A stretch of 64,000 nucleotides of DNA from Mobula hypostoma (Eukaryota): NCBI RefSeq assembly GCF_963921235.1, contig NC_086108.1, positions 17,112,001 to 17,176,000 on the forward strand. Reading direction: 5' to 3'. Position numbers and translations under genes: made by a program. Below are positions 1,541-59,235 of the stretch, piece by piece. The notes under the pieces were generated by a model. The model had not been told where the DNA came from and searched no databases. It was given only the letters and a program-made list of their open reading frames with translations. Within the stretch, counting starts at the first letter, position 1. The number at the start of each line of letters is the position of its first letter.

Positions 1541-1582
1541 CAGTTGACATTTCGGGCCGAGACCCTTCATCAGGACTAACTG
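1541..1582 (-). ncRNA. Minimal type-I hammerhead ribozyme motif in pLTR
   Basis: Minus strand reads agtc CTGATGA a gggt-ctcg-gccc GAAA tGTC aact; core boxes intact, one stem I mismatch. Confidence 0.75.
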
Positions 1583-2348
1583 AAAGAAGTGGTAGTAAGA
1601 GATTTGAAAATGTGGGGGAAGGGGGAGATCCGAAATGATAGGAGAAGACAGGAGGGGGAGGGATGAAGCTAAGAGCTGGGAAGTTGATTGGCTAAAGGGA
1701 AACAAAGCTAGAGACAGTCCTTCCAGGTGAGGCGACACTTCACCTGTGAGTCGACTGGTGTGATATACTGCGTCTGGTGCTCCTGGTGTGGCCTTCTGTA
1801 TATTGGTAAGACCCGATGCAGACTGGGAGACAGTTTCGCTGAACACCTACACTCTGTCCGCCAGAGGAAGCAGGATCTCCCAGTGACCACACATTTTAAT
1901 TCCACATCCCATTCCCATTCTGATATGTCAATCTATAGCCTCCTCTACTGTCGAGATGAAGCCACAATCAGGTTGGAGGAAACAACACCTTATATTCCGT
2001 TTGGGTAGCCTCCAACCTGATGGTATGAACATTGACTTCTCTAACTTCCGCTAATGCCCCTCTTCCCCTTCTTACCCCATCCCCTATTTTGTTTATTTAT
2101 TCATTGATTATTTCCCTCCTTTTTTCTCTCTCTCTTTCCCTCTCACAATCACTCCTTGCCTGCTCTCCATCTTCCTCTGGTGCTCCCCTCCCCCTTTCTT
2201 TCTCCCATATCTCCAGCTTTGTTTCCCTTTAGCCAATCAACTTCCCAGCTCTTGGCTCCATCCCTTCCCCTCCTGTCTTCTCCTATCATTTTGGATCTTC
2301 CCTTCCCCCTCCCCCTCCCACTTTCAATTCTCTTACTAGCTCTTCTTT

Positions 2349-2390
2349 CAGTTATTCCTGACGAAGGGTCTCGGCCCAAAACGTCGACTG
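2349..2390 (+). ncRNA. Hammerhead ribozyme motif with mutated core (G12>A)
   Basis: CTGACGA agggtctcggccc AAAA cGTC gact; GAAA changed to AAAA at 2378. Confidence 0.65.
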
Positions 2391-2619
2391 TGCTTCTTCC
2401 TATAGATGCTGCCTGGCCTGCTGTGTTCTATCAGTATTTTGTGTGTGTTGCTTGAATTTCCAGCATCTGCAGATTTCCTCGTCTATGCCATGTATTTGGC
2501 TTTTTTTTTTAACCCTCTACTAGTTTGTTGAAAACTGAGATAAAGCAGAGATGGCTGCCTTTCTGGTGTTGCTTTTTAACTTACACTCTGGTTGCTTTTA
2601 TGTTCGTAATGGAAACTTT

Positions 2620-3080
2620 GTCTTTGGTTCCTATATGGCCATAACAATTTCATAATATCTTCCTCAATGTCAACGAGACAAAGGAGATGCTTATTAACTT
2701 CAGGAGAACTTGCACCACTCAAACCACTCTTCACATCAGCAAAACATCAGTGGAATCTGTGAGAGGTTTTAAACACATGGGAGAACATATCTCACACGAC
2801 CTCCCAGAACAGATCCTATAGGGTCAAGAAAACTCATCAATGCCTCTACTTTCTGAGGAAGCTGAAGAGAGCTGGACTTGGCACATCAATACTCATGAAG
2901 TACGGATGTGCAGTTGTGAGCATCCGAACATGCTGCAACATTGTGTGGTAAGGAAACTGCACTGCAGTGGACAGAAAGTCTCTACAACAGGTAGTCAAAA
3001 CTGCCCTATGCATCATTAGCACTAGCCTACCTGCTATCAAGGACAAATATTCAGAAAGTTGCCATAAAAAGGCCAAGACC
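2620..3080 (+). mobile_element. Degenerate Rex1/Babar LINE 3' fragment
   Basis: LNVNETKEMLINFRR and LYFLRKLKR-type C-terminal RT motifs. Confidence 0.7.
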
Positions 3081-3739
3081 ACTACTCCTGCCTTACTGAT
3101 AGCCTCAGATGCCTGTCTGTATAATATCTATAGTACATAAGGGATATGTCTGCCTTCTGAAACAAAATTCCTCTCTTTCACAAACTCTCACTTTGGGTTT
3201 CTGCTGGTGCCTTGTATTAATTCAACTCAGATATGTTTATTTTAGAAGGGGAGTAACTCTTGCCTGACTTCACCAAACTCTCCCTGTTTCCAAAATGTGC
3301 AAAATTCTGCATCCACAGACTCTCAGTCTCTGTATTTGTAGAACTCTGTTCTGTGCTACTAATCATTGCACAATTTATCAAAAGGACACGATGCCAGGTC
3401 ATAAAGGATACAGTTGTGTAACTGGCCAAAAGCTGGCCTTATAAGGTACTTTTTAAAGAAACAACTTAAAATGGAAAAGCAAAGGAGACATTGAGACACA
3501 GTGAGGACACTCCAGATCATTGGCAACACTGGAAGTGATTAAAATTAGGTATGTGTACAAAACCAGAATTGGATGAACAAAAATGTTTGAAGGATTGCAG
3601 GACTAAAGGAGGTTCCAAATGTTATGGACAGCAAAGACAAAGGTTTGAAAACCAAGATGAGAATTTTTAAATTGACCTATTGTTTGACCAGGAGTAAAAT
3701 AGTTCAGGAGTGAATTAGAATGTGGGCAGGAAAAATCGA

Positions 3740-5174: not shown

Positions 5175-6071
5175 GTATGGCAGACCTTGCAACATTGAAA
5201 TACTGAGTGCCAAATCTGCTGATGGCTGACCAATACAATGCAACCAATGTGATGAACATTTCCTTTATTGTGACAAATGTTCAGGGGATATTTGCATGGA
5301 GTTCTGCATAAGTACATTCCAATGAGACAGGGAGAGAATGGAAGGGTACAGGAACCGTGGTGTACAAAGGCCCCGTAAATCCCGTCAACAAGAAAAGAAG
5401 ACTTAAGAAAGGTTCAAAAAACTAGGTAATGATAGAGATCTAGAAGATTATAAGGCTAGCAGGAAGGAGCTTAAGAAAGAAATTGTGAGAGCCAGAAGGG
5501 GCCATGAGAAGGCCTTGGCAGACAGGATTAAGGAAAAGCCCAAGGCATTCTACAAGTATATGAAGAGCAAGAGGATAAGAGGTGACAGAATAGGACCAAT
5601 CAAGTGTGACAGTGGAAAAGTGTGTATGGAACTGGAGGAGATAGCAGAGGTACATAATGAGTACTTTGCTTCAGTATTCAATGGGGAAAAGGATCTTGGC
5701 GATTGTAGGGATGACTTACAGTGGACCGAAAAGCTTGAGCATGTAAATATTAAGGAAGCAGATGTGCTGGAGCTTTTGGAAAGCATCAAGTTGGATAAGT
5801 CACTGGGACCAGACAAGATGTACCCCAGGCTACTGTGAGAGTTGAAGGAGGAGATTGCTGAGCCTCTGGTGATGATCTTTGCATCATCAATGGGTACGGG
5901 AGAGGTTCTGGAGGATTGGAGGGTTGCGGATGTTGTTCCATTATTCAAGTGTAACACTCAGCTATACTGGCTCGTATATGTCTAGGGGAAATCCCGCCCT
6001 GCACCAGCCTGAACGCTTCCCTCTGGGTCAGTTGCTGTACCACTGCCACCCAAATCAATCTCCAACATCAA

Positions 6072-8457
6072 CTCTTCCACCCCCACCGATGACCCCTTCT
6101 CCCGTCTTCAACCCTCCTCTTCTTCATGGACACCCCGCTCTGGTCTTCTGCCTGCTCTGGATCTCTTTATCGCTAACTGCAGACGGGACATCAACCGTCT
6201 CGACTTTACCACACCTTGTCTGCGTACTGACCTCTACCTTGCCGAGGCACAGCGACAACTCGCGGATACCTCCTCTTATTTACCCCTCGATCGTGAACCC
6301 ACCAAGGAGCACCAGGCCATTGTCTCCCACACCATCACCGACTTTATCCGCTCAGGGGATCTCCCATCCACTGCTACCAACCTTATAGTTCCCACACCCC
6401 GCACTTCCCGTTTCTACCTCCTACCCAAGATCCACAAACCTGCCTGTCCTGGCCGACCTATTGTCTCAGCTTGCTCCTGCCCTACCGAACTCATTTCTGC
6501 ATACCTCGACACTGTTTTATCACCCCTTGTTCAATCCCTTCCGACCTATGTTCGTGACACTTCTCACACTCTTAAACTTTTCGATGATTTTAAGTTCCCT
6601 GGCCCCCACCGCTTTATTTTCATCATGGATGTCCAGTCCTTATATACTTCCATCCCCCATCAGGAAGGTCTCAAAGCTCTACGCTTCTTTTTGGATTCCA
6701 GACCTAATCAGTTCCCCTCTACCACCACTGTGCTCCATCTAGCGGAATTAGTCCTTACTCTTAATAATTTCTCCTTTGGCTCCTCCCACTTCCTCCAAAC
6801 TAAAGGTGTAGCTATGGGCACCCGTATGGGTCCTAGCTATGCCTGCCTTTTTGTTGGGTTTGTGGAACAATCTAGGTTCCGTGCCTATTCTGGTATCTGT
6901 CCCCCACTTTTCCTTCGCTACATCGACGACTGCATTGGCGCTGCTTCCTGCACGCATGCAGAATTCGTTGACTTTATTAACTTTGCCTCCAACTTTCACC
7001 CTGCCCTCAAGTTTACCTGGTCCATTTCCGACACCTCCCTCCCCTTTCTAGATCTTTCTGTCTCTGTCTCTGGAGACAGCTTATCCACTGATGTCTACTA
7101 TAAGCCTACTGACTCTCACAGCTACCTGGACTATTCCTCTTCTCACCCTGTCTCTTGCAAAAACGCCATCCCCTTATAAGCCTACTGACTCTCACAGCCT
7201 TCTGGACTATTCCTCTTCTTACCCTGTCTCTTGCAAAAATGCCATCCCCTTCTCACAATTCCTCCGTCTCCGCCGCATCTGCTCTCAGGATGAGGCTTTT
7301 CATTCTAGGACGAGGGAGATGTCTTCCTTTTTTAAAGAAAGGGGCTTCCCTTCCTCCACTATCAACTCTGCTCTTAAACGCATCTCCCCCATTTCACGTA
7401 CATCTGCTCTCACTCCATCCTCCCGCCACCCCACTAGGAATAGGGTTCCCCTGGTCCTCACCTACCACCCCACCAGCCTCCGGGTCCAACATATTATTCT
7501 CCGTAACTTCCGCCACCTCCAACGGGATCCCACCACTAAGCACATCTTTCCCTCCCCCCCTCTCTGCATTCAGCAGGGATCGCTCCCTACACAACTCCCT
7601 TGTCCATTCGTCCCCCCCATCCCTCCCCACTGATCTCCCTCCTGGCACTTATCCGTGTAAGCGGAACAAGTGCTACACATGCCCTTACACTTCCTCCCTT
7701 ACCACCATTCAGGGCCCCAAACAGTCCTTCCAGGTGAGGCAACACTTCACCTGTGAGTCGACTGGGGTGATATACTGCGTCCGGTGCTCCCGATGTGGCC
7801 TTTTATATATTGGCGAGACCCGACGCAGACTGGGAGACCGCTTTGCTGAACATCTACGCTCTGTCTGCCAGAGAAAGCAGGATCTCCCAGTGGCCACACA
7901 TTTTAATTCCACATCCCATTCCCATTCTGACATGTCTATCCACGGCCTCCTCTACTGTAAAGATGAAGCCACACTCAGGTTGGAGGAACAACACCTTATA
8001 TTCCGTCTGGGTAGCCTCCAACCTGATGGCATGAACATCAACTTCTCTAACTTCCGCTAAGGCCCCACCTCCCCCTCGTACCCCATCTATTACTTATTTT
8101 TATGCACATATTCTTTCTCTCACTCTCCTTTTTCTCCCTCTGTCCCTCTGAATATAACTCTTGCCCATCCTCTGGGTCCCCCCCACCCCTCCTTGTCTTT
8201 CTTCCCGGACCTCCTGTCCCATGATCCTCTCGTATCCCCTTTTGCCTATCACCTGTCCAGCTCTTGGCTCTATCCCTTCCCCTCCTGTCTTCTCCTATCA
8301 TTTTGGATCTCCCCCTCCCCCTCCAACTTTCAAATCCCTTACTCACTCTTCCTTCAGTTAGTCCTGACGAAGGGTCTCGGCCTGAAACGTCGACTGCGCC
8401 ACTTCCTATAGATGCTGCCTGGCCTGCTGCGTTCACCAGCAACTTTGATGTGTGTTG
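6072..8457 (+). mobile_element. Penelope-like element (RT + Cys linker + GIY-YIG, Neptune-type), 5'-truncated and frameshifted
   Basis: FYLLPKIHKP..PGRPIVS, MDVQSLYTSIPH, GVAMGTRMGPSYA, RYIDD, PCKRNKCYTC, GVIYCVRCSRCGLLYIGET; 12-bp TSD ctccaacatcaa at 6060-6071 and 8458-8469. Confidence 0.97.
8355..8396 (+). ncRNA. Minimal type-I hammerhead ribozyme, intact core
   Basis: Stem I agtc(8360-63)/gact(8392-95); CTGACGA 8364-8370; short stem II; GAAA 8384-87; cGTC with predicted cleavage after 8391. Confidence 0.85.
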
Positions 8458-9234
8458 CTCCAACATCAATCAATAGCCAGCACACACAGTACGTTTTACC
8501 AAGTACACTTATTATTACTAAGATATTAATATAAGATATTACTAAATCTTTGAAATTAATATAAGTTCGATACAGAAAAGGAAGTAATGGGAAAAAAAGG
8601 CACCAGACTTATCAAAGTCCGAGTTCTTCGTGCATAACCCGTTGGAGCTCAATAAATTCCTGATGACCACCCGAATCCTGTCGACTCACGGCTCGGGACC
8701 GCCCGGAGTGATCGACCGGAGTCTTTTCGCACGTCCGCCATCCTCCCCGTCTCTCCTCTGACTCCCCGCCAAAAACCCTGGTTCCCAGTCATATGAGTCA
8801 GCATTATCACCCGAAAAAAATGATAACATGAACACCCATTGGCTAATAGCACCCTGCTGTCCATATTAACCCCAGCAAATGTCTAGCTAGAGACTTTCTC
8901 AGCATTTAACACAACAAAGAAGCCATTTTAATCCACATATGCAGCAATTTAAAAGATTAACATAACAAAGAAGCCATTTTAAATTTAGCATACAAAGAAG
9001 AGACCCCGTACACAAGAAAGGGAGTAGAGATAGCCCAGGAAATTATAGACCAGTAAGTCTTACTTCAGAGATTGGTAAATTGATGGAGAAGATCCTGAAA
9101 GGCTGGATTTATGAACTTTTGGAGAGGCAAAATATGATTAGGAATAGTCAGCATGGCTTTGTCAAAGGCAGGTTGTGCCTTACGAGCCTGATTGAAATTT
9201 TTGAGGATGTGACTAAACACATAGAGCAGTAGAT

Positions 9235-10778: not shown

Positions 10779-12091
10779 TAGATGTAGTGTATATGGATTT
10801 CAGCAAGGCATTTGACAAGGTACCCCATGCAAGGCTTATTGAGAAAGTAAGGAGGCATGGGATCCAAGGGGACATTGCTTTGTGGATCCAGAACTGGTTT
10901 GCCCACAGAAGACCAAAGGTGGTTGTAGATGGGTCATATTCTGCATGGCGGGGGGAGGGGGGAGGGGTCAGTGACTCAGGGATCTGTTCTGGGATCCCTA
11001 CTCTTTATGATTTTTATAAATGACCTGGATGAGGAAATGGGTTAGTAAATTTGCTGATGGCACAAAGACTGGGGGTGTTGTGGATAGTGTGGAGGGCCGT
11101 CAGCGGGACATTGATAGGATGCAAAACTGGGCTGAGAAGTGGCAGATGGAGTTCAACCCAGATAAGTGTGAGGTGGTTCATTTTGGCAGGTCAAATATGA
11201 TGGCAGAATTTCGTATTAATGGTAAGACTCTTGGCAGTGTTAAGAATCAGAGGGATCTTGGGGTCCGTGTCCATAGCACCACTCAAAGCTGCTGTGCAGA
11301 TTGACTCTGTGGTTAAGAAGGCATACAGCTCATTAGCCTTCACCAATCATGGGGCTGAGTTTAGGAGCCGAGAGGTAATGTTGCTGCTATATAGGACCCT
11401 GGTCAGACCCCCTTTGGAGTACTGTGCTCAGTTCTGGTCACCTCACTACAGGAAGGATGTGGAAACCATAGAAAAGGTGCAGAGGAGATTTACAAGGATA
11501 ATGCCTGGATTGGGGAGCATGCCTTATGAGAATAGGTTAAGTGAACTCGGCCTTTTTTCCTTGGAGCGATGGAGGATCAGGTGACTTGATGGAGGTGTAT
11601 AAGATGATGAGTGGCATTGATCGTGTGGATAGTTAGAGGCTTTTTCCCAGGGCTGGAATGGCTAGCTCTAGAGGTTTTAAGGTGCTTGGAAGTAGGTACA
11701 GAGGAGATGTCAGGGGTAAGTTTTTTCCGCAGAGAATGATGAGTGTGTGGAATTGGCTGCCGGCGACGGTGGTGGAGGCAGATACGATCTTTTAAGAGAC
11801 TCCTGGACAGGTATATGGAGCTCAGAAAAATAGAGGGCTATGTGTTACCCTAGGTAATTTTTAAGGTGAGGACATGTTCGGCACAGCTTTGTGGGCCGAA
11901 GGGCCTGTATTTTGCTGTAGGTTTTCTATGTTTCTATGTTTTATTTAAAGAAATAACTTTTATACCTAGTAAAACCATTCTTTATTTCCTCCAACAGGCT
12001 TACTACTGACTGTCTTGTGAGATTATGTGTGTGTTGGATTGTAGTTTCACTTTGTCAACTAATCTGTTTTTGTTCTTCATCTACCTGACAG

Positions 12092-12232
12092 AGAATTTGA
12101 ATCCTTCAACCAGCTGCCACTGAGTCCCAGGCATAAGTTGGCAAAACAGCTGCTGGAAAGAGGTCGGATGAAAGCCCGAGCTTGTTCACTCAAGGCTGTC
12201 CACAACATTCTCCCTGAAGAGAAGCATTTAGT
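12092..12232 (+). CDS. KIAA1614: Internal exon of KIAA1614-like gene
   Basis: Pyrimidine tract + CAG acceptor, GTAAGT donor, 141 bp phase 2/2; EFESFNQLPLSPRHKLAKQLLERGRMKARACSLKAVHNILP resembles the recalled KIAA1614 RHE.AK.LL.RARMKAR..PL.A.H.I.P motif; orthology vs paralogy unverified. Confidence 0.7.
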
Positions 12233-12359
12233 GTAAGTGCTGCTCTTATCTCCCCTCAGTGACCATTAATAAAACAAATCTTGCTACTGATGAATGGCCT
12301 GAAGTTTCAGAACATCTCTATAGTATTGCAACGTACAGTACGTGCTTGAAGTCAGCTGC

Positions 12360-12705
12360 ATGCTAAAGGATGTTTCCCATGGTGGAAGAGTCTAGGACAA
12401 GAGGGCGCCAGGATAGAGGGGGCGCCCTTTCAAAACAGAGATGCAGAGGGATTTCTTTAGCCAAATTGTGGTGAATATTGGAATTTGTTGCCATATGCAG
12501 CTGTGGAGGCCAGGTCGTTGGGTGTATTTAATGCAGAGATTAATATGTTCTTGATTGGACATGGTATCAAAGGTTATGGGAAGAAGGCCGGGAACTGAAG
12601 TTGAGGAGGAGATAGAAAAAAATGATCAGCCGTGATTGAATGGCAGAGCAGACTCGATGAGCCAGATGGCCTAATTCTGCTCCTATGTCTTATGGTCTTA
12701 TGGTC
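12360..12705 (+). mobile_element. CR1 3' fragment
   Basis: MFPMVEESRTRG-type C-terminus; (cttatggt)n tail. Confidence 0.8.
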
Positions 12706-13109
12706 ATACCAACCAGTGCATTCCATGCATCCATTACTCTCTGAGTAAAAAACTTACCCCTCACATCCCCCTTGAACCTATCCCCTCTCACTTTCAATGC
12801 ATGTCCTCTGTGTCTTCCCTAATGCTGTGATATATAGCAAACTGTATTATATGGATCACCATCTGGTATGATCCAGAGGCTAGGAATATGTTAACCTTAC
12901 GTCTACAGATATACTTCTTGCTCTCCCTTCATGAGGCTCCAAACCTTAGTCAGCACTGGTTGAAAGAAAAACTTTACTCTGTTTTTGTTGCCCGTTAAAG
13001 ATCTGGAGACAGGCTCTGAACCAAGAGGGAGGCTGAGGACAAAATAGTATCTATACCCAAGCTATTCGTCCCTCCTCCTGGGATTTTCAAGACATACTTG
13101 GCCTTCCTG

Positions 13110-13410
13110 GGTGCCACAGTAGTATAGCAGTTAGCACGTCGTTAATACAGTTCAGGGCGTCAGAGTTCAGAGTTCAATTTTGACGTCGTCTTTAAGGAGT
13201 ACAGTATCCATGTGCCCTCCCAATGGAATGTATATGTTTTCTCCGGGTGCTCCGATTTCCTCCCAATGTCCAAAGACATAATTGTTAGTAGGTTAATTGG
13301 TCATTGTAAATTGTACGGTGATTAGACTGGGTTAAATAGGTGGGTTGCCGGTGGCGTGGCTAGCTTGGCCAGAAGAGCCTGTTCTGCACTATATCTCTAA
13401 ATAAATAAAC
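13110..13410 (+). mobile_element. V-SINE (HE1-like)
   Basis: tRNA-like head; V-domain ttctccgggtgctccgatttcctccca..tccaaagac; (aaat)n tail. Confidence 0.8.
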
Positions 13411-13889
13411 AGAATACCTCCCATATCCCAATACATGCACCTTACCCAGCAGGAGCACAGTCAGAACACCAAGTGCAAAATGGTGATAAGGTGGAGAAAT
13501 GAGAGTAAACCTCATTCAGAATTTAAGGGTCAAAGGCAAAACTGAGTTTATTGTCATATTGAACAGGTAACATAATTGAACATAATAAACTGAGTTTATT
13601 GAACAGGTGTAATGAAAAACATACAACAGCTTCGTATAGGCAACATTCACAGGAAAAGCATAAATTATACACTATTCTTGTGAGAAGAAACACAATCAGA
13701 ACCTAAAAAGCACTAGGTCCACTTTAGTGCCAAGTGATCCAAGTCGTCATGGTGTTGCAAAATTGGTCGATTTAGGTCCCTCTTTTGAAGTGCAAAATTG
13801 GTCGAAATGATAATGGCAATTTTCATACTTACATACTTTCCTTCATTATCAACATTATTATCCCAAGAAACCTTCTCTGGAGAAAGTCC

Positions 13890-14375
13890 CGAGGAGGTCC
13901 ATGAGAATGATCCTGGGAATGAAAAGGCTAATATATGAGGTGCGTTTGATGGCTCTGGGCCTGTACTCACTGGATTTTAGAAAAATGAGGGAGTATCTCA
14001 TTGAAACCTATCAAACCTTAATGGCTTAGATAGAGTGGATGTGGACAAGATGTTTCCCTTAGTGGGGAAGTCTAGGACCAGAGACCGTTGCCTCAGAATA
14101 GAAAGATGTCCCTTTAGAACAGAAATAAGAAGGAATTTCCTCAGCCAGAGGGTAGGAAATCTGTGGAGTTCATTGCAACAGACAGCTGTGGAGGCCAAGT
14201 CACTGGGTATATTTCAAGTGGAGGTTGATAGCTTCTTGATTAGTCAGGGCATCAAAGGTTACAGGGAGAAGGCAGCAGAATGGAGTTGAGAGGGATAATA
14301 TATCAGCCATGATGGAATGATGAAGCAGACTTGAAGGGCTGAATGGCCCAATTCTACTCCTGTGTCTTATGGTCT
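13890..14375 (+). mobile_element. CR1 3' fragment
   Basis: ORF 14035-14289 DVDKMFPLVGKSRTR...RNFLSQRVGNLW. Confidence 0.85.
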
Positions 14376-14503
14376 AAATGTTTCCATTGAAGGCTTCTGA
14401 ATGAAGGCATCCAGTATGAAGGCACTGAAGAGAGTCCAGAGAGGGGCAACAAGACTCATTCTGGATCTGCAGGGTATGAGCTATAAAGAAAGATTGAAAG
14501 AAT

Positions 14504-46789: not shown

Positions 46790-48300
46790 AGTCAGCCAGC
46801 ATCTAGAGAGGGAAATGAACAGTTGACGTTTCAGGCCAAGGCCTTCATCAGGACTGGGAAAAAAAGGGGGCAGAAACCAGAATAAGAAGGTCATGTAAGT
46901 GGGAGAAGTATAAGGTGGCAGGAGATAGTGATAACAGGTGAGGAGGAAGGAGAGTGGGTGAGATGGGGGATGATGTAAGAAGCTAGGAGGTGACAGATAG
47001 AAGTGGTAAAAGGCTGAAGGAGAAGGAACCTAATTGGAGAGGACAGTGGACTCTGGAAGTAAGGGAAGGAGGAGAGGAACCAGAGGAAAGTGATGGGCAG
47101 GTCTTGAGAGTGAGAGAGAGAGAAAAGAAGGGGTGAGAGGGTAATCAGAATGGGGAATCAAATAAGTGATAAAGGGGAATTGGGGGTGTGAAGAAAGGGA
47201 AATTCAAGATGGCGCCAAGCTGCTTTCTCTGTTGAGGTCGTGGCTCAGACAATTATACTTTTAGGTTAACAGAGATGGTATTGGAACCATAGAGGTGAAT
47301 TAGGGGTCAGGTTGGGGGTTTGGGACAGGAATATGAGGAGTGAGAAGACAGGCCTAAGTCTAGGCCTTTGCTCTGTACTCTGTGTTTGAAGGCCATTGAC
47401 AATGTGGACAAAGGATATCTGTGGACGGTTGTCAAGTTGACAGGTACAGTGGATGAAAACCAGTGAGGAAAATCCTCGTACCAAATCACCAAGTTCCCCG
47501 CAGGATTAGTGGGATTGGAGGTCTGTGCAGGTAGGAGGCATGAAGGCGAGTGATTCTCTAGGTACGCGAGGCAGCGAGCCCAAAGTTTGAAGCCTGGAAC
47601 TCAGGATCCTGTCATCAGTGAGTTGGAGTTCGGGGTCCTGTCATCTGCAGGTTCTGGTATTAATATTGAAGATTGCAGCCCAAATATCAATCTGGTCCTG
47701 AAGTGATAAATTTAAAAAATCTGAATCTGAAAGAAAAAAAAAGGGGGAGATAAAGAAATTATCGGAAGTTAGGGAAATCAATGTTCATGCCATCAGGTTG
47801 GAGGCTACCCAGACAGAATATAATGTGTTGCTCTTCCAACCTGAGTTTGGCCTCATTGCGACAGTAGAGGAGGCCATGGACTGACATGTCGGAATGGGAA
47901 TGGGAAGTGGAATTAAAATGGGTGGTCACTGGGTAATCTTACCTTTTGAGTCAGAAAGCGCAAAGCTGCTTGAGAAACACGCCCTCGAGTCTGCAACGCG
48001 TCTCACCAATGTAGAGGAGGCTGCACCAGGAGGAGCTGGACTCACAGGCGAAATGTTGTCTCACCTGGAAGGAGTTTTTGAGACCCTGTATGGTAGTGAG
48101 GGAGGAGGTGCAGGGGCATGATAGCACCTATCATGGTTGCAGGGATAAGTGCAAGGAGGAAAATCAGTGGGGAGGGATGCGTGAATAATGGAGTTATGTA
48201 GAAAGCAACCCTACAGAAAGCAGAGGTAAGTGGAGAATAGGGAGGGCAAGATTTGCCCAGTGGTATGTCCCATTAGAGATGGTGGAAGTCACTATGAATG
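46790..48300 (-). mobile_element. Degenerate Penelope-like element, interrupted at ~47200-47745
   Basis: pLTR with hammerhead; GIY-YIG C-terminus (LEEQHIIFCLGSLQPDGMNIDF) near 47760-47930. Confidence 0.85.
46820..46856 (-). ncRNA. Minimal hammerhead ribozyme motif, core intact
   Basis: Minus strand: cagtc CTGATGA aggc-cttg-gcct GAAA cGTC aactg. Confidence 0.78.
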
Positions 48301-48658
48301 ATACTATATATTCAATGGATCAGATTAAAGCAGCACAGTCAGTCATGAACAATATTGGATAATTTGATATCTAATAGGGAGACCGCATTCTTGTTCGCAC
48401 ACAAAACTGAAACATTTATTAGGAATTCAGAGCTAGTGATCCATCCTGGCTTTCACCTGAAGTCTCCATGATCACATATGTGGGTCTTCAACCAATTTGA
48501 GTCACTCCATATGATTTCAAGAGATAACTGAAACCAATGAACAATGCAAGAATTTTGGGGTTAGGTAATGTCCCAGCTGTAGTTCTGAGTACTTATACTC
48601 TAATAATTAGCTTTGCCTAGATAAGCCTTTCCTGTATTGTTATAACAATGGCATCGGC

Positions 48659-50254
48659 TGTCATGGTCCGGTCTGTGAAGTCCGTATTCCGGTTCATGGT
48701 CCGGTCCATCGACCCTTGCTCCAGGTTTTCCTGTCTACCCTGTTTCTGTTCTTGTTGAGCTCTAATTGAGGCAGCTGATTCTCGTTGGGGCTGGCTGCAT
48801 AAATACCTTCAGAGACCAGGGCATGGCTGCTGGATTGTTCTTGTCCTTACTCCTTGTATCCCTTCCTTTGCCTTCTGTTTCCTCACCTGAAGCCTTGCCG
48901 GTAACTCTTGCCTTGCCTGAAGTTCTCTTTTTGCCTTGCATTGCCTGAAGCCTTGCCTGGTCTTGCTGGTAACTCTCGCCTCGTCTCGCCTGCAGTCTTG
49001 TCCTGGAGCTACCCCGTACCTAGCTCCCTTCCTGTCTCTTGCCTCCGCCGGGTAAGTCTAGCCGTCTTGCCATTACCCTGCGGTTGATTCTGTCCCTTCC
49101 TGTTCCTTGCCTCTGTCGGGTAAGCCAGGCCATATTGCCATTACCTACGGTTGGTTCTGTCCCTTCCTGTCCCTTGTCTCCTCGGGTGGAGTTCTGCGCC
49201 CTGCCCAGGAGGAGCCTCCAGCCTCCTGCCAAGCCTCTAGCCTCCAGCCTCCTGCCAAGCCTCGCCTCTCAAGTCTCTAGCCTCCAGCCTCCTGCCAAGT
49301 CTCAAGTCTCAAGTCTCTAGCCTCCAGCCTCCTGCCAAGCCTCGCCTTAAGCCTCAAGCCTCAAGTCTCTAGCCTCCAGCCTCCAGACTCGCCTCAAGTC
49401 TCCAGTCTCCTGCCAAGCCTCCCCTCAAGTCTCAAGTCTTTAGCCTCCAGTCTCCTGCCAAGCCTCACCTCAAGCCACAAGTCTCTAGCCTCCAGTCTCC
49501 AGTCTCGCCTCAAGCCTCAAGTCTCCAGTCTCCAGTCTCCTGCCAAGCCTCACCTCTAGTCCCTAGCCTCCAGCCTCCAGTCTCCTGCCTCCTGCCAAGC
49601 CTCACCTCTATTCTCTAGTCTCTAGCCTCTAGCCTCCTGCCAAGCCTTGCCTCAAGTCTCTAGCCTCAAGCCTGAAGACTCCAGCCTCCTGCCTCCTGCC
49701 AAGCCTTGCCTCTAGTCTCTAGCCTCTAGCCTCAAGCTTGAAGACTCCAGCCTCCTGCCTCCTGCCAAGCCTCACCTCTAGTCTCTAGCCTCTAGCTTCA
49801 AGCCTGAAGACTCCAGCCTCCTGCCAAACCTCGCCTCTAGTCTCTATCCTCTAGCCTCAAGCCTGAAGACTCCAGCCTCCTGCCTCTTGCCAAACCTCGC
49901 CTCTAGTCTCTAGCCTCAAGCCTGAAGACTCCAGCCTCCTGCCTCCTGCTAAGCCTCGCCTCTGGTCTCTAGCCTCAAGCCTGAAGACTCCAGCCTTGTC
50001 CTGCCTGCCAGCCAAGCCTCATCCTTGCCTAGTGCTGGGGTCCGAGCCAGAGGCAAGACCCAGGTACTGGGTCCTTGTCCAGTCCCTGGCTTGGAGTCCA
50101 AGCCCGGGCTCCTAGCTCTCTTGTTCGGTCCTGTTCTGGGTTCTCGGTTTTTGTGTGCATGTCCTTGCCCCCACCGTGTATCCTAGTCCTGTCCCTAGTA
50201 CTTCAGTGTCTGTGTCTTGCACTTGGGTCCGTTCTTAGCCACCCCCTTATGACA
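48659..50254 (+). mobile_element. Solo Gypsy-type LTR enlarged by internal tandem repeat
   Basis: TGTCAT...ATGACA termini; imperfect 5-bp TSD tcggc/tctgc; cataaatac TATA-like box; subterminal gcacttgggtcc similar to the Gypsy LTR at 41233. Confidence 0.8.
49215..50010. repeat. Modular minisatellite built from 7-mers
   Basis: gcctcca / gtctcta / gcctcaa / gcctcct modules grouped into variable ~35-60-bp units. Confidence 0.9.
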
Positions 50255-50877
50255 TCTGCAGGACAACCTCAAGCAGTATTTTACAACAGTCAGACACAGC
50301 CTGCTGTCTTACTGACATTAAAATCAACTCTTACTAAGTGCATTAGTGGCACGATGTGTCTCCACCAAATTACAACCCAATTACTTCCCCAGCCTAGAAT
50401 AATACTGGGGGATTTGTGGAGAAAGAACTTTTCCCAAACCTACATACTGATCACTGGGTGGTTCTGTAGAACATCATTCTATTTTTCAACCTGCCAGCTG
50501 GTCCAGATTCTAGCCCTTCATGCAGATATGGCACAGTCCATAGTGGGACAACCTAGGGGAATTTCCAGGCTTTCCGACCTTCTCCACAGCAAGGACCAGA
50601 TTTCCAGTGTAAGGCTGCGCAAATAAAGTTCACAGAAGCAACAGGGCAAGCAAAGTCTCCAGAGGAAGCATAATGCTCAATAATCAGTACATTGACTGTA
50701 GAATGAGTATGGTTTGTTTCCTAAAATGTCATTTGTTTAATTTTATTTATCTATTTGTTAATAAGAACTTGCAGCTATAGCTGTAATGGTCCAAAGTTAT
50801 TGACCTTTCATTAGACTTTTTCACTTTTCAATTCTGTAACTATCTTGGTATTTAAGCCCTTAAAGATGAAAACACTA

Positions 50878-52910
50878 CAAGACCATAAGACATAGGAGCA
50901 TAATTAGACCATTTGGCCATCAAGTCTGTGCTACATTTGATTATGGCTGATTTATTATCCCTTTCAACACCATTCTCCTGCATTCTCCCTGTAACCTATG
51001 ATGCCCTTAGAATCAAGCAGCTATCCAACTCCACTTTTAATATACTCAATGACTTGGACTCCACAGCCATCTGTGCAAAGAATTCCACAAATTCACTACC
51101 CTTTGCCTAAAGAACTTCCTCTTCATCTTTGATCAAAAGGGACATCCTTGTATTCTGTGGCTGTGACCACAGTTTCTAGACTCCCCCACTCTAGGAAGTA
51201 TCCTCTTCATGCTACTCTCACTAGGCCTTTCAATATTTGATAGGCTTCGAGGAGATCTACCTCATTCTTCTGAACTTCAGTGAGTACAGGCATCAAACAC
51301 TCTTCATACCTTTCACCCAGAATCATTCTAATGAACCTCCTCTGGACCCTTCCCAATTCCCAGCACTTCCTTTCTTAGGTAAAAGGGCCAAAACTGTTCA
51401 CAATGTTCCAAGTGTGGTCTGACCAATGCTTTATAAAGCCTCACCATTATGTCCTTGCTTTTATATTCTAGAAATGAATGCTAACATTGTATTGACCTTT
51501 CTTAGCACCAACTCAATCTGCAAGTTAAACCTTTAGTGAATCTTGCATGAGGATACCCAAGTCCCTTTGTACCTCTGATTTCTGAATGTTCCTCCCATTT
51601 AGAAAATAATCTACGCCTTTATTCTTTCTACCAAAGTGCATGACCATACACTTTCCTACACTATATTCCACCTATCACTTTTTTGCCCTTTCTCCTAATT
51701 TGCCTAGGTCCTTCTGTGCACTTCCTGCTTCCTCAACATGACCTGCCCTTCCACTTATCTTTATAACATCTACAAACTTGGCCACAAAGCCATAATTTCC
51801 ATCATCTGAAGTGATGACATATAATGTGAAAAGAAACTGTCCCAATGCCTACCTGCGTGGAACACTACTAGCCTCTGGCAGCTCCATATAAAAGGTCCCT
51901 TTATTCCCACTCTTTGCCCCCTACCAGTCAGCCAATCTTCTATCTGTACTAGTGTCTTTCCTGTAATACAATGAGCTGGTGCATTGCAAAGTCAGGGGAC
52001 AATGTGTTCGAGGCAGTTTCAGAGATGGAGATGGAGTTGGAATGAGCAATTTGAAGAGGAGTCGAGGCTGAGAAGTTTTGATGCCCATCCACCTAAAACA
52101 AGTGTGAGGTTGTGAGCTCTAAGTATGAAACTGATCTGGAGAGGTTGAGAACAACTTCGAGCTGGGTGGCGAAGTCTAGGTCTTGTGCTGGGGCCTGGTG
52201 AGGCACGACCTGGTGTCTGGATGATTTAAATACCGGCCAAAATAGACTGAAAAGGTAGGGTGCCGGGACCAGAAGCAAGGGTCAAGCTTACTTCGCTCTC
52301 TCTTCCACGATATTCACTTCTCTTTCCGCGGTGCTGAGGCTGTGAGTCTGCTCCTGTTACCACACACTTTGTGATGGCTTGTCCTGCTAACTTGAGACCG
52401 AGGCTTTGGACTTGCTCCTGCTGCTCTAGGGACTGAATTTGGTTTGGAATGCTGTAGTTTGCTTCTATTGTTTGCATGATTTGTGTTTTTTTCTCTTTTG
52501 CTGCCCATTGGGTGTTGATCTTTTTTTTAATTGGGTTCTTTCGGGTTTCCTGCTTTGTGGCTGTCAGTAAGCAGACAAATCTCAAGGTTCTAAGATTTAA
52601 ATACACTTTGATAATAAATGTACTTGAATCTTATCTTCTGTTGCACCTTGTCAAAGACCTTCTGGAACTCCATGTAAGCAACATCCTCTGACTCTCCTTT
52701 GTCTATCCTGCCTGTTATTTCCTCAAAGAATGCCATCAGATTTGTCAGGCAAGATTTCCCCATCTTGGAACTATGTTGACTCATGCCTATTTTATCATGT
52801 GCTACTAAGTAACCTGAAAACTTATCCTTAATGATGGACTCCAACATCTTTCCAACCACTGAAGTCAGGCTAAGTGGTCTGTAATTTCTTGTCTTTTACC
52901 TCCCTCCCTT
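50878..52910 (-). mobile_element. CR1 3' half, interrupted at ~51975-52630
   Basis: (accataag) tail; VGKMLESIIKD...GKSCLTNL..FFEEIT...Y.EFQKVFDKV. Confidence 0.85.
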
Positions 52911-52914
52911 CTGG

Positions 52915-53425
52915 TGAAATTTCACTTGGAGTATTGTCATCCTTATCTAAGAAAGAATGTGAGGACATTGGAGAGCGTTCAAAGGAGGCTCACAAAATTA
53001 TTGTAGGAATGAAAGTCTTATCATATGAGGAGTGGTTGATAGCTCTAGGCCTGTACCCTGTGGAATTTAGAAGAATAACAGGAGATCTCATTCAGACCTA
53101 TCGAATGTTGAAAGGCCCAGATAGCGTGGATGTGAAGAGGATGCTTCCTATGGTGGGGGAGTCAAGGACTAGGGCACGACCTTAGAACAAAGATGAAGAG
53201 GAATTTCTTTAGCCAGATGGTGGTGAATTTGTGGAATTTGTTGCCACAAACAGCTGTGGAGGTCAAGTCATTTAAGGAGGAGGTTGATAAGTTCTTGATA
53301 AGTCAGGAAGGGAAAGATTACTGGAAGAAGGTAGGAGATCAGTTTGAGAGGGAAATGGATCAGCCATGATCAAATGATGGAGAAGACTGACCTGATGGCC
53401 TAATTCTGCTCCAATGTCTTATGGT
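52915..53425 (+). mobile_element. CR1 3' fragment
   Basis: LSYEEWLIALGLYPVEFRRITGDLIQTY; CR1 3' UTR. Confidence 0.8.
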
Positions 53426-53708
53426 GCTGTAGACTGAAGTCTGTTGGAAAGTTCCAAAAGGCTCCACTCTTTTTTAAAATCTCGTGCTGGCTCTCCTCAA
53501 AACAAAAGCGAGTATGGTTTCTACTCAACTCCGTATTTTTGCCCTGCTTTTATTCAACAGATACTATAATTCATTTTCATCAACAATCTCTGCAAATAGA
53601 GAAAAGATTTACAATTCCACTTTCCACTTCCTTATTATACAGGTAGATGAACAAACATTGAATGCAGGATTTTATGAAGTTAACTTGTATTCTTTCTTTT
53701 TGCTTCAG

Positions 53709-53874
53709 GTATATTTATTCATGAAATGGCCACAAGAATGCTGAAAAATTGTACTCTGGAACCAGGAGATGAAATGTTGGATATCAATGGGAATGTGTGG
53801 AAGGTCACACTTTCAATGTGATCAACAATCTGATATTACAGGACAACAGAGTGCCAATTAGGGTCAGAAGACAG
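53709..53874 (+). pseudogene. KIAA1614: Frameshifted PDZ-domain terminal exon of KIAA1614-like gene
   Basis: Strong acceptor tctttcttttttgcttcAG; GIFIHEMATRMLKNCTLEPGDEMLDINGN, then after a 1-nt shift near 53795 VEGHTFNVINNLILQDNRVPIRVRRQ; abuts CR1 tail. Confidence 0.72.
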
Positions 53875-56710
53875 AACATAGAACATAGAAATCTACAGCA
53901 CATTACAGGTCCTGCGGCCCACAATGTTGTGCCAACAATGTAAGTACTCTAGAAACTGCCTAGAATTTCCCTAGCGTATAGCCTTCTATTTTCCGAAGTT
54001 CTATGTACCTATCTAAGAGGCTCTTAAAAGACCTTATTGTATCCGCTTCCACCACTGCTGCTGGAAGTACATTCCAAACACCCACCACTCTCTGCGTGAA
54101 ATCCCCTCGGTACCTATTTTCAAGCACCTTAAAACTATGCCCCCTCGTGTTGGCCATTTCAGCCCTGGGAAAAAGCCTCTGGCTATCCACATGATCAATG
54201 CCCCTCATCATCTTATACACCTCTATCAGGTCACCTCTCATCCTCCGTCGCTCCAAGGAGAAAAGGCCAAGTTCACTCAACCTATTCTCATAAGGTACGC
54301 CCTCCAATCCAGGCAACATCCTTGTAAATCTCCTCTACACTCTCTCTATAGTATCCACATTCTTCCTGCAGTGTGGTGACCAGAGCTGAACACAGTACTC
54401 CAAGTGGGGTCTGACCAAGGTCTCATATAGCTGTAACATTACTTCATGGCTCTTGAACTCAGTCCCACGGTTGATGAATGCCAACACACCATACTTAACA
54501 ACTCTGTCAACCTGCACAGCAGCTTTGAGTGTCATATGCAAGATATCTCTGATCTTCCACACTGCCAAGAGTCTTACCATTAATATTATATTCTGTCTTC
54601 AAATTTAACCAATCAAAATGAACCACTTCACACTTATCTGGGTTGAAGTCCATCTGCCACTTCTCAGCCCAGTTCTGCATCCTATCGATGTCTTGCTGTA
54701 ACCTCTGACAACCCTCCAGACTATCCACAACACCCCTAACCTTGTGTCATCAGCAATCTTACTAACCCACCCTTCTACTTCTTCATTCAGGTCATTTATC
54801 GATATCAAAAAGAGGAGTTGTCTGCGGAACACCACTGGTCACCAACCTCCATATAGAATATGAACCATCTACAACCACCCTTTGCCTTCTGTGGGCAAGC
54901 CAATTCTGGCTCCACAAAGCAAGGTCTCCTTGGATCCCATGCCTCCTTACTTTCTGAAGGAGCCTGGCATGGGGAACCTTATCAAATGCCTTACAGAAAT
55001 CCATTACACTACATCCATTGTTCTACCTTCATCAATGTGTTTTGTTACATCCTCAAAGAATTCAATTAGGATCGTAAGGCATGACCTACCCTTAATGAAG
55101 CCATGCTGACGATCCCTAATCAGGTTATGTCTCTCCAAATGCTTATAAATCCTGTCTCCCAGGATCTTCTCCAACAACTTGCCCACCACTGAAGTTAGAC
55201 TCACTGGTCTATAATTTCCTGGGTTATCTCTACTCCCTTTCTTGAACAAGGGAACAACATTTGCAACCCTCCAATCCTCTGGTACTTCTCCTGTCCCTAT
55301 TGATGATGCAAAGATCATCACAAGAGGCTCAGCAATTTCCTCCCTCACTTCCCACAGTAGCTTGTGGTATATCTCATCCGGTCCCTGTGACTTATCTAAC
55401 TTAATGCTTTTCAAAAGCTCCAACACATCCTCTTTCTTAATGTCTATATGTTCAAGTGTAGCATCCTAGTAAGCCTCAGGCTCGCTCAGCTCACTTTTGT
55501 CTAGGGGGAGCAGCCTTCGGCCCCACCAAACTGGGTAATCAAGTTTGTGTGGATGCTATGTGATGTACCCCACCACGCCAAATAACAGACAGTACACCAT
55601 ATGTGATTAAATGATTACACTTTATAAGTATTTCTTGGTGATGGGTTAGTAGAAACAAATACAATAAAGGAGCCAAGTCAGTAACTCTAACAATTCTGTA
55701 CACAAATAGTTCATTGGAGCTCTTACAGAACATTATTTCCTCCAGTTGATGTCCTCTGAACTCTGCCAACCCTTAAATGGGACCACCCTCGGTGGTCGGC
55801 CGAACGCTCCCCACGGGTCTGTCCTCGTCTCCTCTCCTTGCTGAAGACCCTGGGCCTTGAACTCCCACTCGGGGTCCGTTCCATCGCCCAGCTTACAGCA
55901 TCATGTCTCCTCTCTCTGTCCCCATCGTGCCTTCTCCCCAAAGCCCACAAAAACAATAGCTTACAGACACACAAGAAAGAATAACATCTATCCCAATTGG
56001 TTAGCAAATGAATACAATTCTCGTTATCAGTAATTATAATCCAAACAAGCTGCTACCGTTAACTCAGCAATTAACATTACAGAGAAGCCATTTTATTAGC
56101 TTTAGCAGTAACATCAAAGAAGAAACCCCTTACAGTCAGCTGTAAGTCATACCCACAACTGCCAAGGTCTTTTTTTCTGGTGAATACTGAAGCAAAGTAC
56201 TCATTACGTACCTCTGCTACCTCCTCTGACTCCATGCACATACTTCCACTATCAGAACTGATTGGTCCTATTCTCACACGGCTCGTCCTCTTGCTCTTCA
56301 CATATTTGTAGAATACCTTGGGGTTTTCCTTAATCCTGCTCATCAAGGCCTTCTCATGGCCCCTTCTGGCTCTCCTGATTCCATTCTTAAGCTCCTTAGC
56401 AATCTTGTAGTTTTCTGGACCTCTAACAGTACCTACTTTCTCAAGCTTTTACTTTCTTCTTAACTAGATTTTCTACATCCTTTGTACACGATGGTCCTGC
56501 CTCAATGAACATACTTATGCAGAACTCCATGCAAATGTTCCCTGAGAACATCTGCTCCCAATTTATGCTCCCAAGTTCCTGCCTAATAGCATCATATTTC
56601 CCCCACCCCAATTAAATGTTTTCCCAAATTGTCTGTTCCTATCCCTCTCCAGCGCTATGGTGAAGGAGATAGAGTTGTGGTCACTACCTCCAAAATGCTC
56701 TCCCATTTGT
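53872..56710 (-). mobile_element. CR1 LINE, 5'-truncated, containing a solo LTR
   Basis: ORFs 55004-55426, 54792-55004, 54507-54728, 53960-54319; (ttctatg)n tail. Confidence 0.95.
55457..56134 (-). mobile_element. Solo LTR (678 bp) related to 5950-9012
   Basis: TGTA...TACA termini; shared gtctagggg, ttggagctc, agaagccatttt and aaagaaga.acccc blocks; TSD not preserved. Confidence 0.78.
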
Positions 56711-57434
56711 AATATAATGCCAACACACGACAAAAGGATATTGGTAGAAACAGCCACTGGCTCATGGTTTATGCACACAGTCAAAGTACTTTTAGTATAT
56801 TCAAAAAGTTAAGAAGTTCTCTGGAGTGGGCACTGCAGTGTTTTATGTACCTTAGTTGTCATGTCTAAGACGTGTAAGGCAACAACATCAACAACTGATT
56901 CGTGGTCTTATCAGACGCCAGGATCCAAATTTGTATCCTTGTGCATACAGTTTTGTTAATCAAACTCTATCTTGTTGCTCAGTTACAACTTCACTGAATT
57001 GTAAAACCTGCAATCCTGCAGAGTACTGATAAGTCCTTTCCCTGATATCCCATTGTCTGAAGCCCTGCTCAGTGTCTGCATAGGTACCAATGTATCTTTC
57101 TGTACAATTCCCTCTCATTCTGAATGAACTTGAGTGTTTATTGGCACAGGCAGACCCTTTCATTTGCCACTCAAGCTTTATGTTATAAGAGATTAGCATT
57201 TGAAGTAAAATTAAACATATGTATTTGATAAATTAATGAACCAACGAAATGTGAGTTTGGGTACAGCTTTGACTGGGTTTTATTCTTCGTCAAGCATCTT
57301 GAAGCTCTTTAACAAAATGAATTGATGCTTTATAGCCAGACCAAAGTACGATCGCCATTCTATCAGAAAAGGCACAGTGAGTTACTGAAAAACCATTTCT
57401 CTATCATTTGTTAGAAAATATTACTGACATACAC

Positions 57435-57605
57435 ACAATGTTCTCCTTGTGACCACATGGGTTTCCTGTGGGTGCTCCAGTTTCCTCCTGCATTCCAAAG
57501 ATGTGCGGGTTAGTAAGTTAATTGAACACATGAGTATAACTGGGCATTGCAGGCTGTAGGACAGAAAGGCCTGTCACCATGCTATATATCTCAATGAATA
57601 AATAA
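57435..57605 (+). mobile_element. V-SINE (HE1-like) 3' part
   Basis: gggtttcc..tgggtgctccagtttcctcc..cattccaaagatgtg V-domain; (aata)n tail. Confidence 0.75.
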
Positions 57606-58119
57606 ACCTCAGTCCCTGCTCTTTAATAATAAAACAGTTTTGAATTCAAAATTTGCCTGTTTTCTTTGCAATATTGTTTAGGAATACAAACACATTATTC
57701 ATGAAATAAAATTATTATTCATTTAACAGCACTGGTGACAGTTACTTATTTCAAGAAACAGAACATCCATTCTGCTTGCTAGTCTTTTCCCCTCATTTCC
57801 CCCTAAAATGTTCTCCTCTGAGAACTGGTGCTCAGGGATTCCAATAGCAAAGAGATTGCTTAATTGGGGTCACAAGTTAAACCCTTCTAAAATAAGTGAA
57901 GTCTATGACTGATAGTTCAGTCCATGATGTAGAGATGAGTACAGGAAGTTCAATATCCAAAATTGTTAGTTATAGAAAATAGGAGAGCTTGAGAGGCAAC
58001 AAGGATTGTGAAAGATTGAGGAGAGATGGGAGTGGGAGGATATAATAGTGGCAGTTACAGGTTAATGGGTGGAAGTATAAGATAATCAATTTTAAGAAGA
58101 AACTTGATTAATAAATCAA

Positions 58120-58634
58120 TGAATGCTATTAGTGAGACTTGGTTGCAGGAGCGGCAGGACTGGCAGCTTAATGTTCCGGAGTTCCGTTGTTTCAGACGTG
58201 ACATAGGAGGAGGGATGAAAGGGGGAGGAGTGGCATTACTAGTCAGGGAGGATATCATAGCTGTGCATAGACAGGACAGCCTGGAGGGCTTGTCTACTGA
58301 GGCCATATGAGTGGAGCTGAGGAATGGGAAAGGGGTGACCACACTAATGGGGTTGTATTATAGACTGCCCAATAGTCAGAGAGAATTGGAGGAGTAAATC
58401 TGTAGAGAGATAGCAGACCGATGTAAGAAACAGAAAGCTGTAATTGTAGGGGATTTTAACTTTCCACATATTGACTGGGACTCCCACACTGTGAAAGGGT
58501 TAGATGGCGTGGAGTTTGTCAAATGTGTTCAGGTAAGTTTTCTAAATCAATATATAGAGGTACCAATGAGAGAAGATGCAATACTTGATCTCCTATTAGG
58601 GAATCAGACAGGGCAGGTGACAGAAGTACGAGTA
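58120..58634 (+). mobile_element. CR1 APE endonuclease fragment
   Basis: AISETWLQ, GGGVALLVRE, IVGDFNFPHIDW, AILDLLL. Confidence 0.88.
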
Positions 58635-59235
58635 GGCAAACATTCTGCAGATGCTGCAAATTCAAGCAGCACACATCAAAGTTGCTGGTGAACGCAGCAG
58701 GCCAGGTAGCATCTCTAGGAAGAGGTACAGTCGACATTTCAGGCCGAGACCCTTCGTCAGGGCTAACTGAAGGAAGAGCTAGTAAGAGATTTGAAAGTGG
58801 GAGGGGGAGGGGGAGATCCAAAATGATAGGAGAAGACAGGAGGGGGAGGGATGGAGCCAAGAGGTGGACAGGTGATTGGCAAAAGGGATATGAGAGGATC
58901 ATGGGACAGGAGGCCCAGGGAGAAGGAAAAGCCGGGGGGGGGTGGGAACCCAGAGGATCGGCAAGGGGTATAGTCAGAGGGTCAGAGGGAGAAAAAAGAG
59001 GGAGAGAGAAAGAATACGTATATATAAATAAATAACGGATGGGGTACAAGGGGGAGGTGGGGCATTAGCAGAAGTTAGAGAAATCAATGTTCATGCCATC
59101 AGGTTGGAGGCTACCCAGATGGAATATAAGGTGTTGTTCCTCCAGCCTGAGTGTGGCTTCATCTTTACTATAGAGGAGGCTGTGGATAGACATATCAGAA
59201 TGGGAATGGGACATGGAATTAAAATGTGTAGCCAC
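58635..59235 (-). mobile_element. Penelope 3' fragment (same family as 6072-8457)
   Basis: VATHFNSMSHSHSDM...LGSLQPDGMNIDFSNF; full pLTR and tail. Confidence 0.92.
58728..58769 (-). ncRNA. Minimal hammerhead ribozyme motif
   Basis: Minus strand: agcc CTGACGA agggtctcggcct GAAA tGTC gact; stem I mismatch. Confidence 0.72.

Follow-up and report, generated by a model that had tools for sequence, protein, structure and literature searches.

Minimal hammerhead motifs in the window

The window analyzed here, a stretch of 64,000 nucleotides from Mobula hypostoma (assembly GCF_963921235.1, contig NC_086108.1, positions 17,112,001 to 17,176,000), carries numerous copies of a hammerhead ribozyme motif that belong to a Penelope-like retroelement. 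A preliminary description of this DNA had counted about 14 recurrences of the motif, six of them with an intact core. Using a profile built from six window copies, which as seeds match by construction, 14 copies were found at the same places at E ≤ 1.5e-8, and all 14 are 3' ends of Penelope-like elements. The number of insertion events is below 14, since at least three inverted pairs stem from one insertion each (1453-2479, 16952-18042, and 23587-25223). The copies are given below, A6 and A6C denoting the base, A or C, at core position 6.

1542..1577, minus strand: young A6 family motif with both boxes preserved but the first pair of helix I disrupted; forms an inverted pair with the 2354 copy
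2354..2389, plus strand: hammerhead motif, young A6 family; G12A through CpG decay and one helix I change
8360..8395, plus strand: descriptor-intact minimal hammerhead, sense to the host gene
8360..8395, plus strand, parts: helix I 8360-8363 with 8392-8395; CUGACGA 8364-8370; extra A 8371; helix II 8372-8383 (G10.1-U11.1); GAAA 8384-8387; palindrome ACGU 8387-8390; predicted cut after 8391
15442..15479, minus strand: decayed hammerhead motif, old family
16066..16198, plus strand: short young-family insertion with its 5' end inside the CUGANGA box
16356..16391, minus strand: decayed hammerhead motif, old A6 family
17012..17047, minus strand: descriptor-intact minimal hammerhead from an older A6 subfamily with the loop UCCG; lies antisense to the host gene and forms an inverted pair with the 17927 copy
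17927..17962, plus strand: hammerhead motif of the same insertion as the 17012 copy; G12A through CpG decay
23654..23688, minus strand: A6C-lineage hammerhead motif (CUGCUGA) with additional decay; forms an inverted pair with the 25090 copy
25090..25125, plus strand: A6C-lineage hammerhead motif (CUGCUGA), further decayed; inverted partner of the 23654 copy
25733..25768, plus strand: old A6 family motif with both boxes preserved and helix I disrupted
30797..30880, plus strand: strongly decayed copy (profile E 1.5e-8)
33567..33612, minus strand: weak 15th relic, absent from the preliminary list (profile E 2e-4)
46821..46855, minus strand: hammerhead motif with a 1-base deletion in stem II that is unique in the genome; helix I broken
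58729..58764, minus strand: young A6 family motif with a broken helix I; located past the last coding exon that was mapped

The motif is a real and correctly recognized member of a class published in 2014, the minimal hammerhead ribozymes of metazoan Penelope-like elements, for which a consensus and a dimer model were presented (Cervera and De la Pena, PMC4209133), while the number of intact copies and the covariation had been overstated. As in that class, it is of type I, with CUGANGA followed by one additional base, GAAA, a loopless palindrome at 15.2-16.2, a short helix I, and a U-rich region upstream. The loopless palindromic helix III and the extra base after A9 had thus been read correctly from the start, and the predicted cut after 8391 falls at the right position (C17 = 8364 + 27). 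The boxes agree with the class, with the exception of position 6 in the A6C lineage. Further shared traits are the presence of a copy in each repeat, the predominance of dispersed single copies, and the occurrence of opposite-strand pairs. In contrast to the published class, helix II is short here (four pairs) and nearly invariant, and no cartilaginous fish was seen among the species in the accessible parts of the alignment and supplement of the 2014 study.

Our descriptor of the minimal hammerhead comprised both boxes, a helix II of at least three pairs, a palindromic helix III, UH, and a helix I of at least three pairs. Only 2 of the 14 window copies, 8360(+) and 17012(-), match it in full; in these two, and in 23 family copies within 880 kb of sampled genome (88 stretches of 10 kb at round coordinates), helices I and II can pair and helix III is a palindrome. 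All pairs of the dimer model are allowed. The six copies formerly regarded as intact do keep CUGANGA and GAAA, but in 1542(-), 25733(+), 46821(-), and 58729(-) helix I is interrupted, its first or second pair being mismatched. Likewise, the proposed covariation of stem II between subfamilies did not hold: the stem aggc-cttg-gcct is present once in the 3.48 Gb of the genome, in this window, and is therefore a decayed copy and not a subfamily, and the other two stems differ in the loop only. In the youngest family, G10.1-U11.1 stands instead of the usually fixed G-C pair (8383 in the window), with the loss of a CpG, while an older young group retains the C. G10.1-C11.1 is the majority in the Y2, C6, G14, and O15 groups, and the two-copy G4 group is split. 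At two unrelated loci (L063 and L072), stem II was found to be wholly deleted between repeated letters at its two ends.

A scan of the window with Rfam gave no hammerhead family match up to E = 1, which likely reflects the missing helix III. In the predicted monomer fold, G5-G8 are paired with the cleavage strand, and the folding z-scores of the monomers (0.08 and -0.77) are unremarkable, so that stability is no evidence either way. For two window copies, the nearest-neighbor model assigns -11 to -16 kcal/mol to the active dimer as compared to -23 to -25 kcal/mol for two monomers and -30 to -32 kcal/mol for the best dimer, placing the active form 9-21 kcal/mol above its alternatives. The predicted monomer fold and the unfavorable active dimer fit the weak activity reported for the class, in which the monomer is inactive and the dimer weak (PMC4209133). 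Among nine Xenopus hammerhead dimers, one was reported to be active and eight did not cut (10.64898/2026.07.22.740005).

The carrier element, its scale, and its insertion ends

The assignment of the motif to the pseudo-long terminal repeats (pseudo-LTRs) of Penelope-like elements was borne out by full-length loci, which carry it at both ends of a frame for a reverse transcriptase (RT) and a GIY-YIG endonuclease. Out of 10 loci chosen for long open frames, four (L064, L065, L066, and L069) contain two motifs about 3.5 kb apart with a 1016-residue open reading frame (ORF) between them. This ORF shows similarity to RVT_1 (E 5e-5) and, at its C-terminus, to GIY-YIG (E 8e-4), both below the cut-off of Pfam, and the first shared Met follows the cut at a distance of about 140 bases. 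The endonuclease is preceded by the linker CKRNKCYTC (CxxxxCxxC). A CX2-5CxxC linker marks Neptune and Nematis and is missing in Poseidon, from which the ray element differs in this respect (PMC8557442). In addition to the linker, it shares with Neptune and Nematis a single ORF with RT followed by GIY-YIG, pseudo-LTRs, inverted 5' partners, and a tail (Craig et al. 2021, PMC8557442). The element would accordingly be classed as Neptune/Nematis-type by a linker common to both clades, which are not separated here. No named reference element was found among the 120 homologues listed, and the best named protein relative, from the bamboo shark, is 72% identical.

The copy at 8360 forms part of the following element, downstream of whose ribozyme a further conserved block is located.

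6071..8459, plus strand: Penelope-like element of the youngest family, 5'-truncated, 96-98% identical to the full-length copy L064
6071..8459, plus strand, content: part of the RT; GIY-YIG end (stop at 8060); pyrimidine-rich 3' untranslated region (UTR); hammerhead; the element stops near +68 relative to the cut
8410..8459, plus strand: conserved block downstream of the ribozyme, containing the first insertion end point

The frame of this element is shifted by a duplication of 76 bases (7099-7251). For its RT, 63,861 first-look candidates were obtained, the 128 that were scored being 96-100% identical. Read by eye, the copy apparently lies inside another repeat (5950-6070 and 8460-8800), which in turn interrupts a fragment resembling a long interspersed nuclear element (LINE) at about 5949. 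Many motif copies are joined to endonuclease-coding sequence. The majority of all copies are 5'-truncated 3' ends which have decayed since their insertion. The 5' repeat is variable in length (172-1179 bases), inverted 5' partners typical of the class are seen in the window, and partial tandems and a tail of 30-40 bases were also seen. Hammerhead retrozymes have been described in one chondrichthyan (Li et al. 2026 preprint, 10.64898/2026.07.22.740005). The hammerhead of such non-LTR retrozymes is likewise of type I and related to Penelope pseudo-LTRs, but they form tandem non-coding arrays, whereas the window contains no tandem array of the motif (0 of its 25 tandem-repeat entries include it). 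Short tandem runs of the 5' UTR segment of the element, possibly retrozyme-like arrays, were noticed at C2:157816721-157817372 (about 310 bases apart) and C2:122542760-122543053 (about 262 bases apart).

The family is very large, as had been surmised. One 31-base form of the motif has 50,694 exact matches genome-wide, with none for the control. In the 880-kb sample the profile yielded 174 matches (reversed control 0) and the descriptor 24 (reversed control 0; five shuffles 0 each); 23 of these 24 come from this Penelope family. Scaled to the genome, this corresponds to about 687,000 motifs (589,000-797,000) and about 91,000 descriptor-intact ones (58,000-136,000), both being Poisson ranges that ignore clustering. 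The Penelope element covers at least 4.9% of the sampled DNA. For the 2014 class, about 4,000 copies were given for the coelacanth and about 9,000 for Xenopus with a different descriptor; the intact count in the ray is thus about 10 times that given for Xenopus, a scale which adds to the value of the finding. A Penelope-like expansion has also been reported for whale shark introns (10.1101/443036), the accessible part of that source making no mention of ribozymes.

The ends of the insertions were determined for those 86 young copies in which they could be resolved, 56 of them from loci picked for other reasons. The 3' ends of 81 copies are located at +55 to +72 or at +95 to +107 from the cut, and the remaining 5 run into the ORF. 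As the copies span the cut or lie beyond it at their 3' end, most of them spanning it, the template was uncut or re-joined there. None of the 86 copies has its 5' end within 3 bases of the cut, as was also seen when the listed sequences were read by eye, and among 30 copies running into the 5' UTR, 21 read through the cut and none starts at it. With few ends counted, this represents no enrichment at the cut and not a deficit. Three 5' ends called at +7 were dismissed as likely alignment trimming because no listed sequence starts at the cut. The 57 bases before the cut hold 27 of the 86 5' ends, as compared to 8 in the preceding 240 bases, which hints at an RNA start or a stop point of the enzyme. 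By inspection, 5' ends and inversion junctions, for example at 16066, L149, L151, L158, and L166, cluster not at the cut but in a zone that begins some 30 bases before the core and extends into it.

The two 3' end clusters match the two start sites and the tail of the Poseidon element PAc of Anolis carolinensis, in which reverse transcription starts internally, the ribozyme cuts only with protein, and insertion in vitro does not need the ribozyme (Frangieh et al. 2024, PMC11167929). Both elements have the ribozyme in the pseudo-LTR, two 3' end points that result in a tail of 30-40 bases, and no ends at the cut site. In contrast to the ray element with its more distant first Met, the ORF of PAc starts inside stem II. 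The block at 8410-8459 is likely the start site of reverse transcription. These genomic data speak against cleavage as the source of the ends of the copied RNA, which is likely the uncut form. In the full-length element L065, the two repeats (L065:3649 and L065:7166) differ at two common family-variant sites (one case, by eye), and this suggests two templates or a non-circular source.

Conservation of the motif and the A6C lineage

To compare subfamilies, the 86 of 200 hits with enough flank were clustered on flank columns alone, some clusters being merged after inspection; the five resulting majorities represent groups of 2-19 copies, with 12 unassigned copies and the youngest group left out. 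The preliminary description had made its reading depend on an excess conservation of the core over the flanking pseudo-LTR. Such an excess exists over the flanks, as 7 of the 36 ribozyme columns but 63 of the 72 flank columns are variable (p 3e-12, with gaps scored as variable and a rough upstream alignment), and some of the 7 are likely due to CpG decay. It does not exist over the block of 47 bases further downstream, where 15 columns are variable (p 0.22 versus the ribozyme). In older subfamilies, core and downstream sequence decay at similar rates. Runs from four coded organisms, which are assembled contigs and were used for sequence variants only, show variants of at least 10% inside 8360-8394 at CpG sites exclusively, and loose ends cluster at 8360 and at 8394-8397, both edges of helix I.

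The copies at 23654(-) and 25090(+) had been listed as damaged. They are not simply damaged, and represent a lineage with C at core position 6: this base is found in 13 of the 14 copies of the flank-defined group to which they belong and in 1 of 72 others (p 2e-13). Genome-wide, exact matches number 3,049 for a C6 pattern of 22 bases and 308 for its G6 counterpart, the G6 change being a transition, normally the commoner type. A 34-base C6 pattern has 287 matches; among the first 30, judged by eye, about 22 are not mutants of the young family and 8 are. The 11 flank-verified copies lead to an estimate of about 43,000 A6C copies (22,000-78,000), and the 19 among 115 box-covering hits to one of up to 75,000. 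These copies diverge by 6-9% from their own majority at non-CpG sites, as compared to 1-3% in the youngest and 11-15% in the oldest family. In runs of two other organisms placed on a C6 copy, A at that site accounts for 65% and 69% of the reference-biased summed depth, a weak hint that the lineage is common to other organisms.

A tree of 35 copies (8 young A6 rows picked from many, 16 C6, and 11 old A6) was built from the endonuclease end and the 3' UTR, with the ribozyme excluded and two sporadic mutants dropped. The best tree has two changes, with young A6 nested inside C6 (support 97/76 for the whole group and 96/90 for the inner node), while a single C6 clade is not rejected by the approximately unbiased test (p-AU 0.064, or 0.11 and 0.075 with one or two rows removed). 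This topology suggests a reversion to A6, or recombination, in the young family. An earlier tree that rejected a single A6C clade (p-AU 0.002) was abandoned, as it rested on one possibly chimeric copy, and a test with seven added copies was spoiled by L212, a sporadic mutant of another subfamily. In one A6C copy, L176:2520(+), the endonuclease end reaches 92% identity with the young family within a single window of 150 columns; this copy may be an intermediate or a chimera.

The core variant of the 2014 class is U3-A8 and not A6C. In the literature searched, A6C came up in a phage ribozyme, an engineered mutant, and a review only, and no description was found of this ray family or of A6C in a Penelope element; Repbase and Dfam, which were outside the search, may list them. 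The phage Bcep176 hammerhead also has C at position 6 (Perreault et al. 2011; Naghdi et al. 2020). Its reported rate is k < 0.1 per minute (PMC3088659), and it shows a strong preference for Mn2+ over Mg2+ and still cuts with Mn2+ (PMC7151607). In contrast to this single ribozyme with a measured Mn2+ preference, the lineage described here belongs to a retroelement, amounts to tens of thousands of copies, and was recognized from sequence alone. The A6C core is predicted to slow self-cutting, and its amplification suggests that these elements can probably multiply without efficient cutting. It is conceivable, although we would stop short of calling it probable, that the master lineage went through a long A6C phase with a crippled and possibly Mn2+-preferring core, in which copies arose by the tens of thousands, and that A6 was restored prior to its youngest and largest burst.

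The host gene, its neighbors, and the role of cleavage

Apart from the Penelope-like element, the window contains the following features.

12090..53901, plus strand: host gene, KIAA1614-like (DUF4685), with coding exons at about 12090-12227, 21029-23005, 29255-29446, 31932-32192, and 53690-53901
9758-10666, minus strand: RT frame of another retroelement family (RVT_1 E 5e-22)
55007-55465, minus strand: RT frame of another retroelement family (RVT_1 E 1e-8)
14505-15274: 44-base tandem array of 17.5 copies, in a host intron
49025-50020: low-complexity array of complex structure, its units ranging from 7 to 125 bases

The DUF4685 domain lies in the large frame 20882-22828, and a further exon of the host gene, flanked by AG and GT, was found about 1.5 kb upstream of the window. 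All six homologues found for the host protein are elasmobranch, the best being from the sawfish, and four are named KIAA1614-like or homolog. Both RT frames are likely LINE-type. The intronic location previously given for the hammerhead copies applies to 13 of the 14, and not to 58729(-), which lies about 4.8 kb past the last mapped coding exon. One could imagine that intronic copies have been co-opted and regulate the KIAA1614-like gene by cutting its pre-mRNA, in line with one intact copy (8360) that lies in sense orientation in an intron. We regard this as very improbable, since the density of copies in the window (14 in 64 kb) is like that of the genome sample (174 in 880 kb), the older subfamilies decay alike in core and downstream sequence, and the one intact copy in sense orientation is simply a young insertion, for which the window offers no intact partner on the same strand. 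The intronic copies would rather be passengers of the host gene.

The explanation that we consider probable is a slow, assisted ribozyme whose cut is not the template-making step. The motif is a type-I hammerhead of the minimal kind, carried in the pseudo-LTR of a Penelope-like retroelement that has amplified enormously; it would be slow in its action and cut only as a dimer or with the help of the element's protein. Reverse transcription would have two internal start sites, both located downstream of the ribozyme, giving rise to the 35-base tail. Selection would operate only in master elements, cleavage would be a side or late step that trims tandem read-through RNA or limits the template, and the element may manage with little cleavage for a long time. 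Several observations weigh against this explanation. No compensatory changes are present in the helices among the subfamily majorities, helix I being invariant and stem II changing only in the loop and at 11.1; the pairing therefore rests on the pattern and on the class and not on covariation. Since the downstream block is about as conserved as the ribozyme, conservation alone does not single out catalysis. Position 8395 is often A in two other organisms, which would shorten helix I to three pairs, and the folding energies leave out tertiary contacts. Furthermore, a circular RNA that was cut and re-joined would also read through the site, and the likely return of A6 in the youngest family speaks for continued selection on catalysis.

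In the model of 2014, cleavage is required: tandem transcripts undergo cleavage as dimers, and the products are re-joined to form circles, which are used as template. Insertions reading through the cut and 5' repeats of variable length (172-1179 bases) agree with this model, as does the strong conservation of the core, including its CpG sites, in all subfamily majorities except at position 6. The A6C lineage would then have remained sufficiently active, for instance in the presence of Mn2+ or protein or through mixed dimers formed with A6 RNAs from co-active families, and the natural A6C ribozyme is indeed active with Mn2+ (PMC7151607); the best tree, moreover, shows A6 regained before the youngest burst. 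However, the repeats of L065 differ from each other, unlike copies of one circle, the Anolis element inserts without cleavage in vitro (PMC11167929), and Naiad elements amplify without a ribozyme (PMC8557442), and we view a requirement for cleavage as rather doubtful. A still smaller chance is given to the idea that the motif is no longer a ribozyme in this lineage and acts, together with the downstream block, as a promoter or protein-binding element. The equal conservation of that block, the wide spread of A6C, the replacement of the usual G-C by G10.1-U11.1 in the youngest family, and the clustering of 5' ends upstream of or inside the motif (27 versus 8 of 86), as from a transcription start, would all be compatible with a non-catalytic role. 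Against it, the conserved stretch that holds the motif is bounded exactly by the two strands of helix I, all consensus features of minimal hammerheads are retained, and a return to A6 would be unexpected without catalysis.

While the arrangement itself has been known since 2014, the A6C lineage among Penelope hammerheads is the new element here. The genome holds matched natural variants (old A6, A6C, and young A6 with G10.1-U11.1), each of them amplified. If the proposed history of the master lineage is true, a core variant hitherto described from a single phage would be present at high copy number in a vertebrate, and its loss and return would amount to a natural experiment on the function of the Penelope hammerhead.

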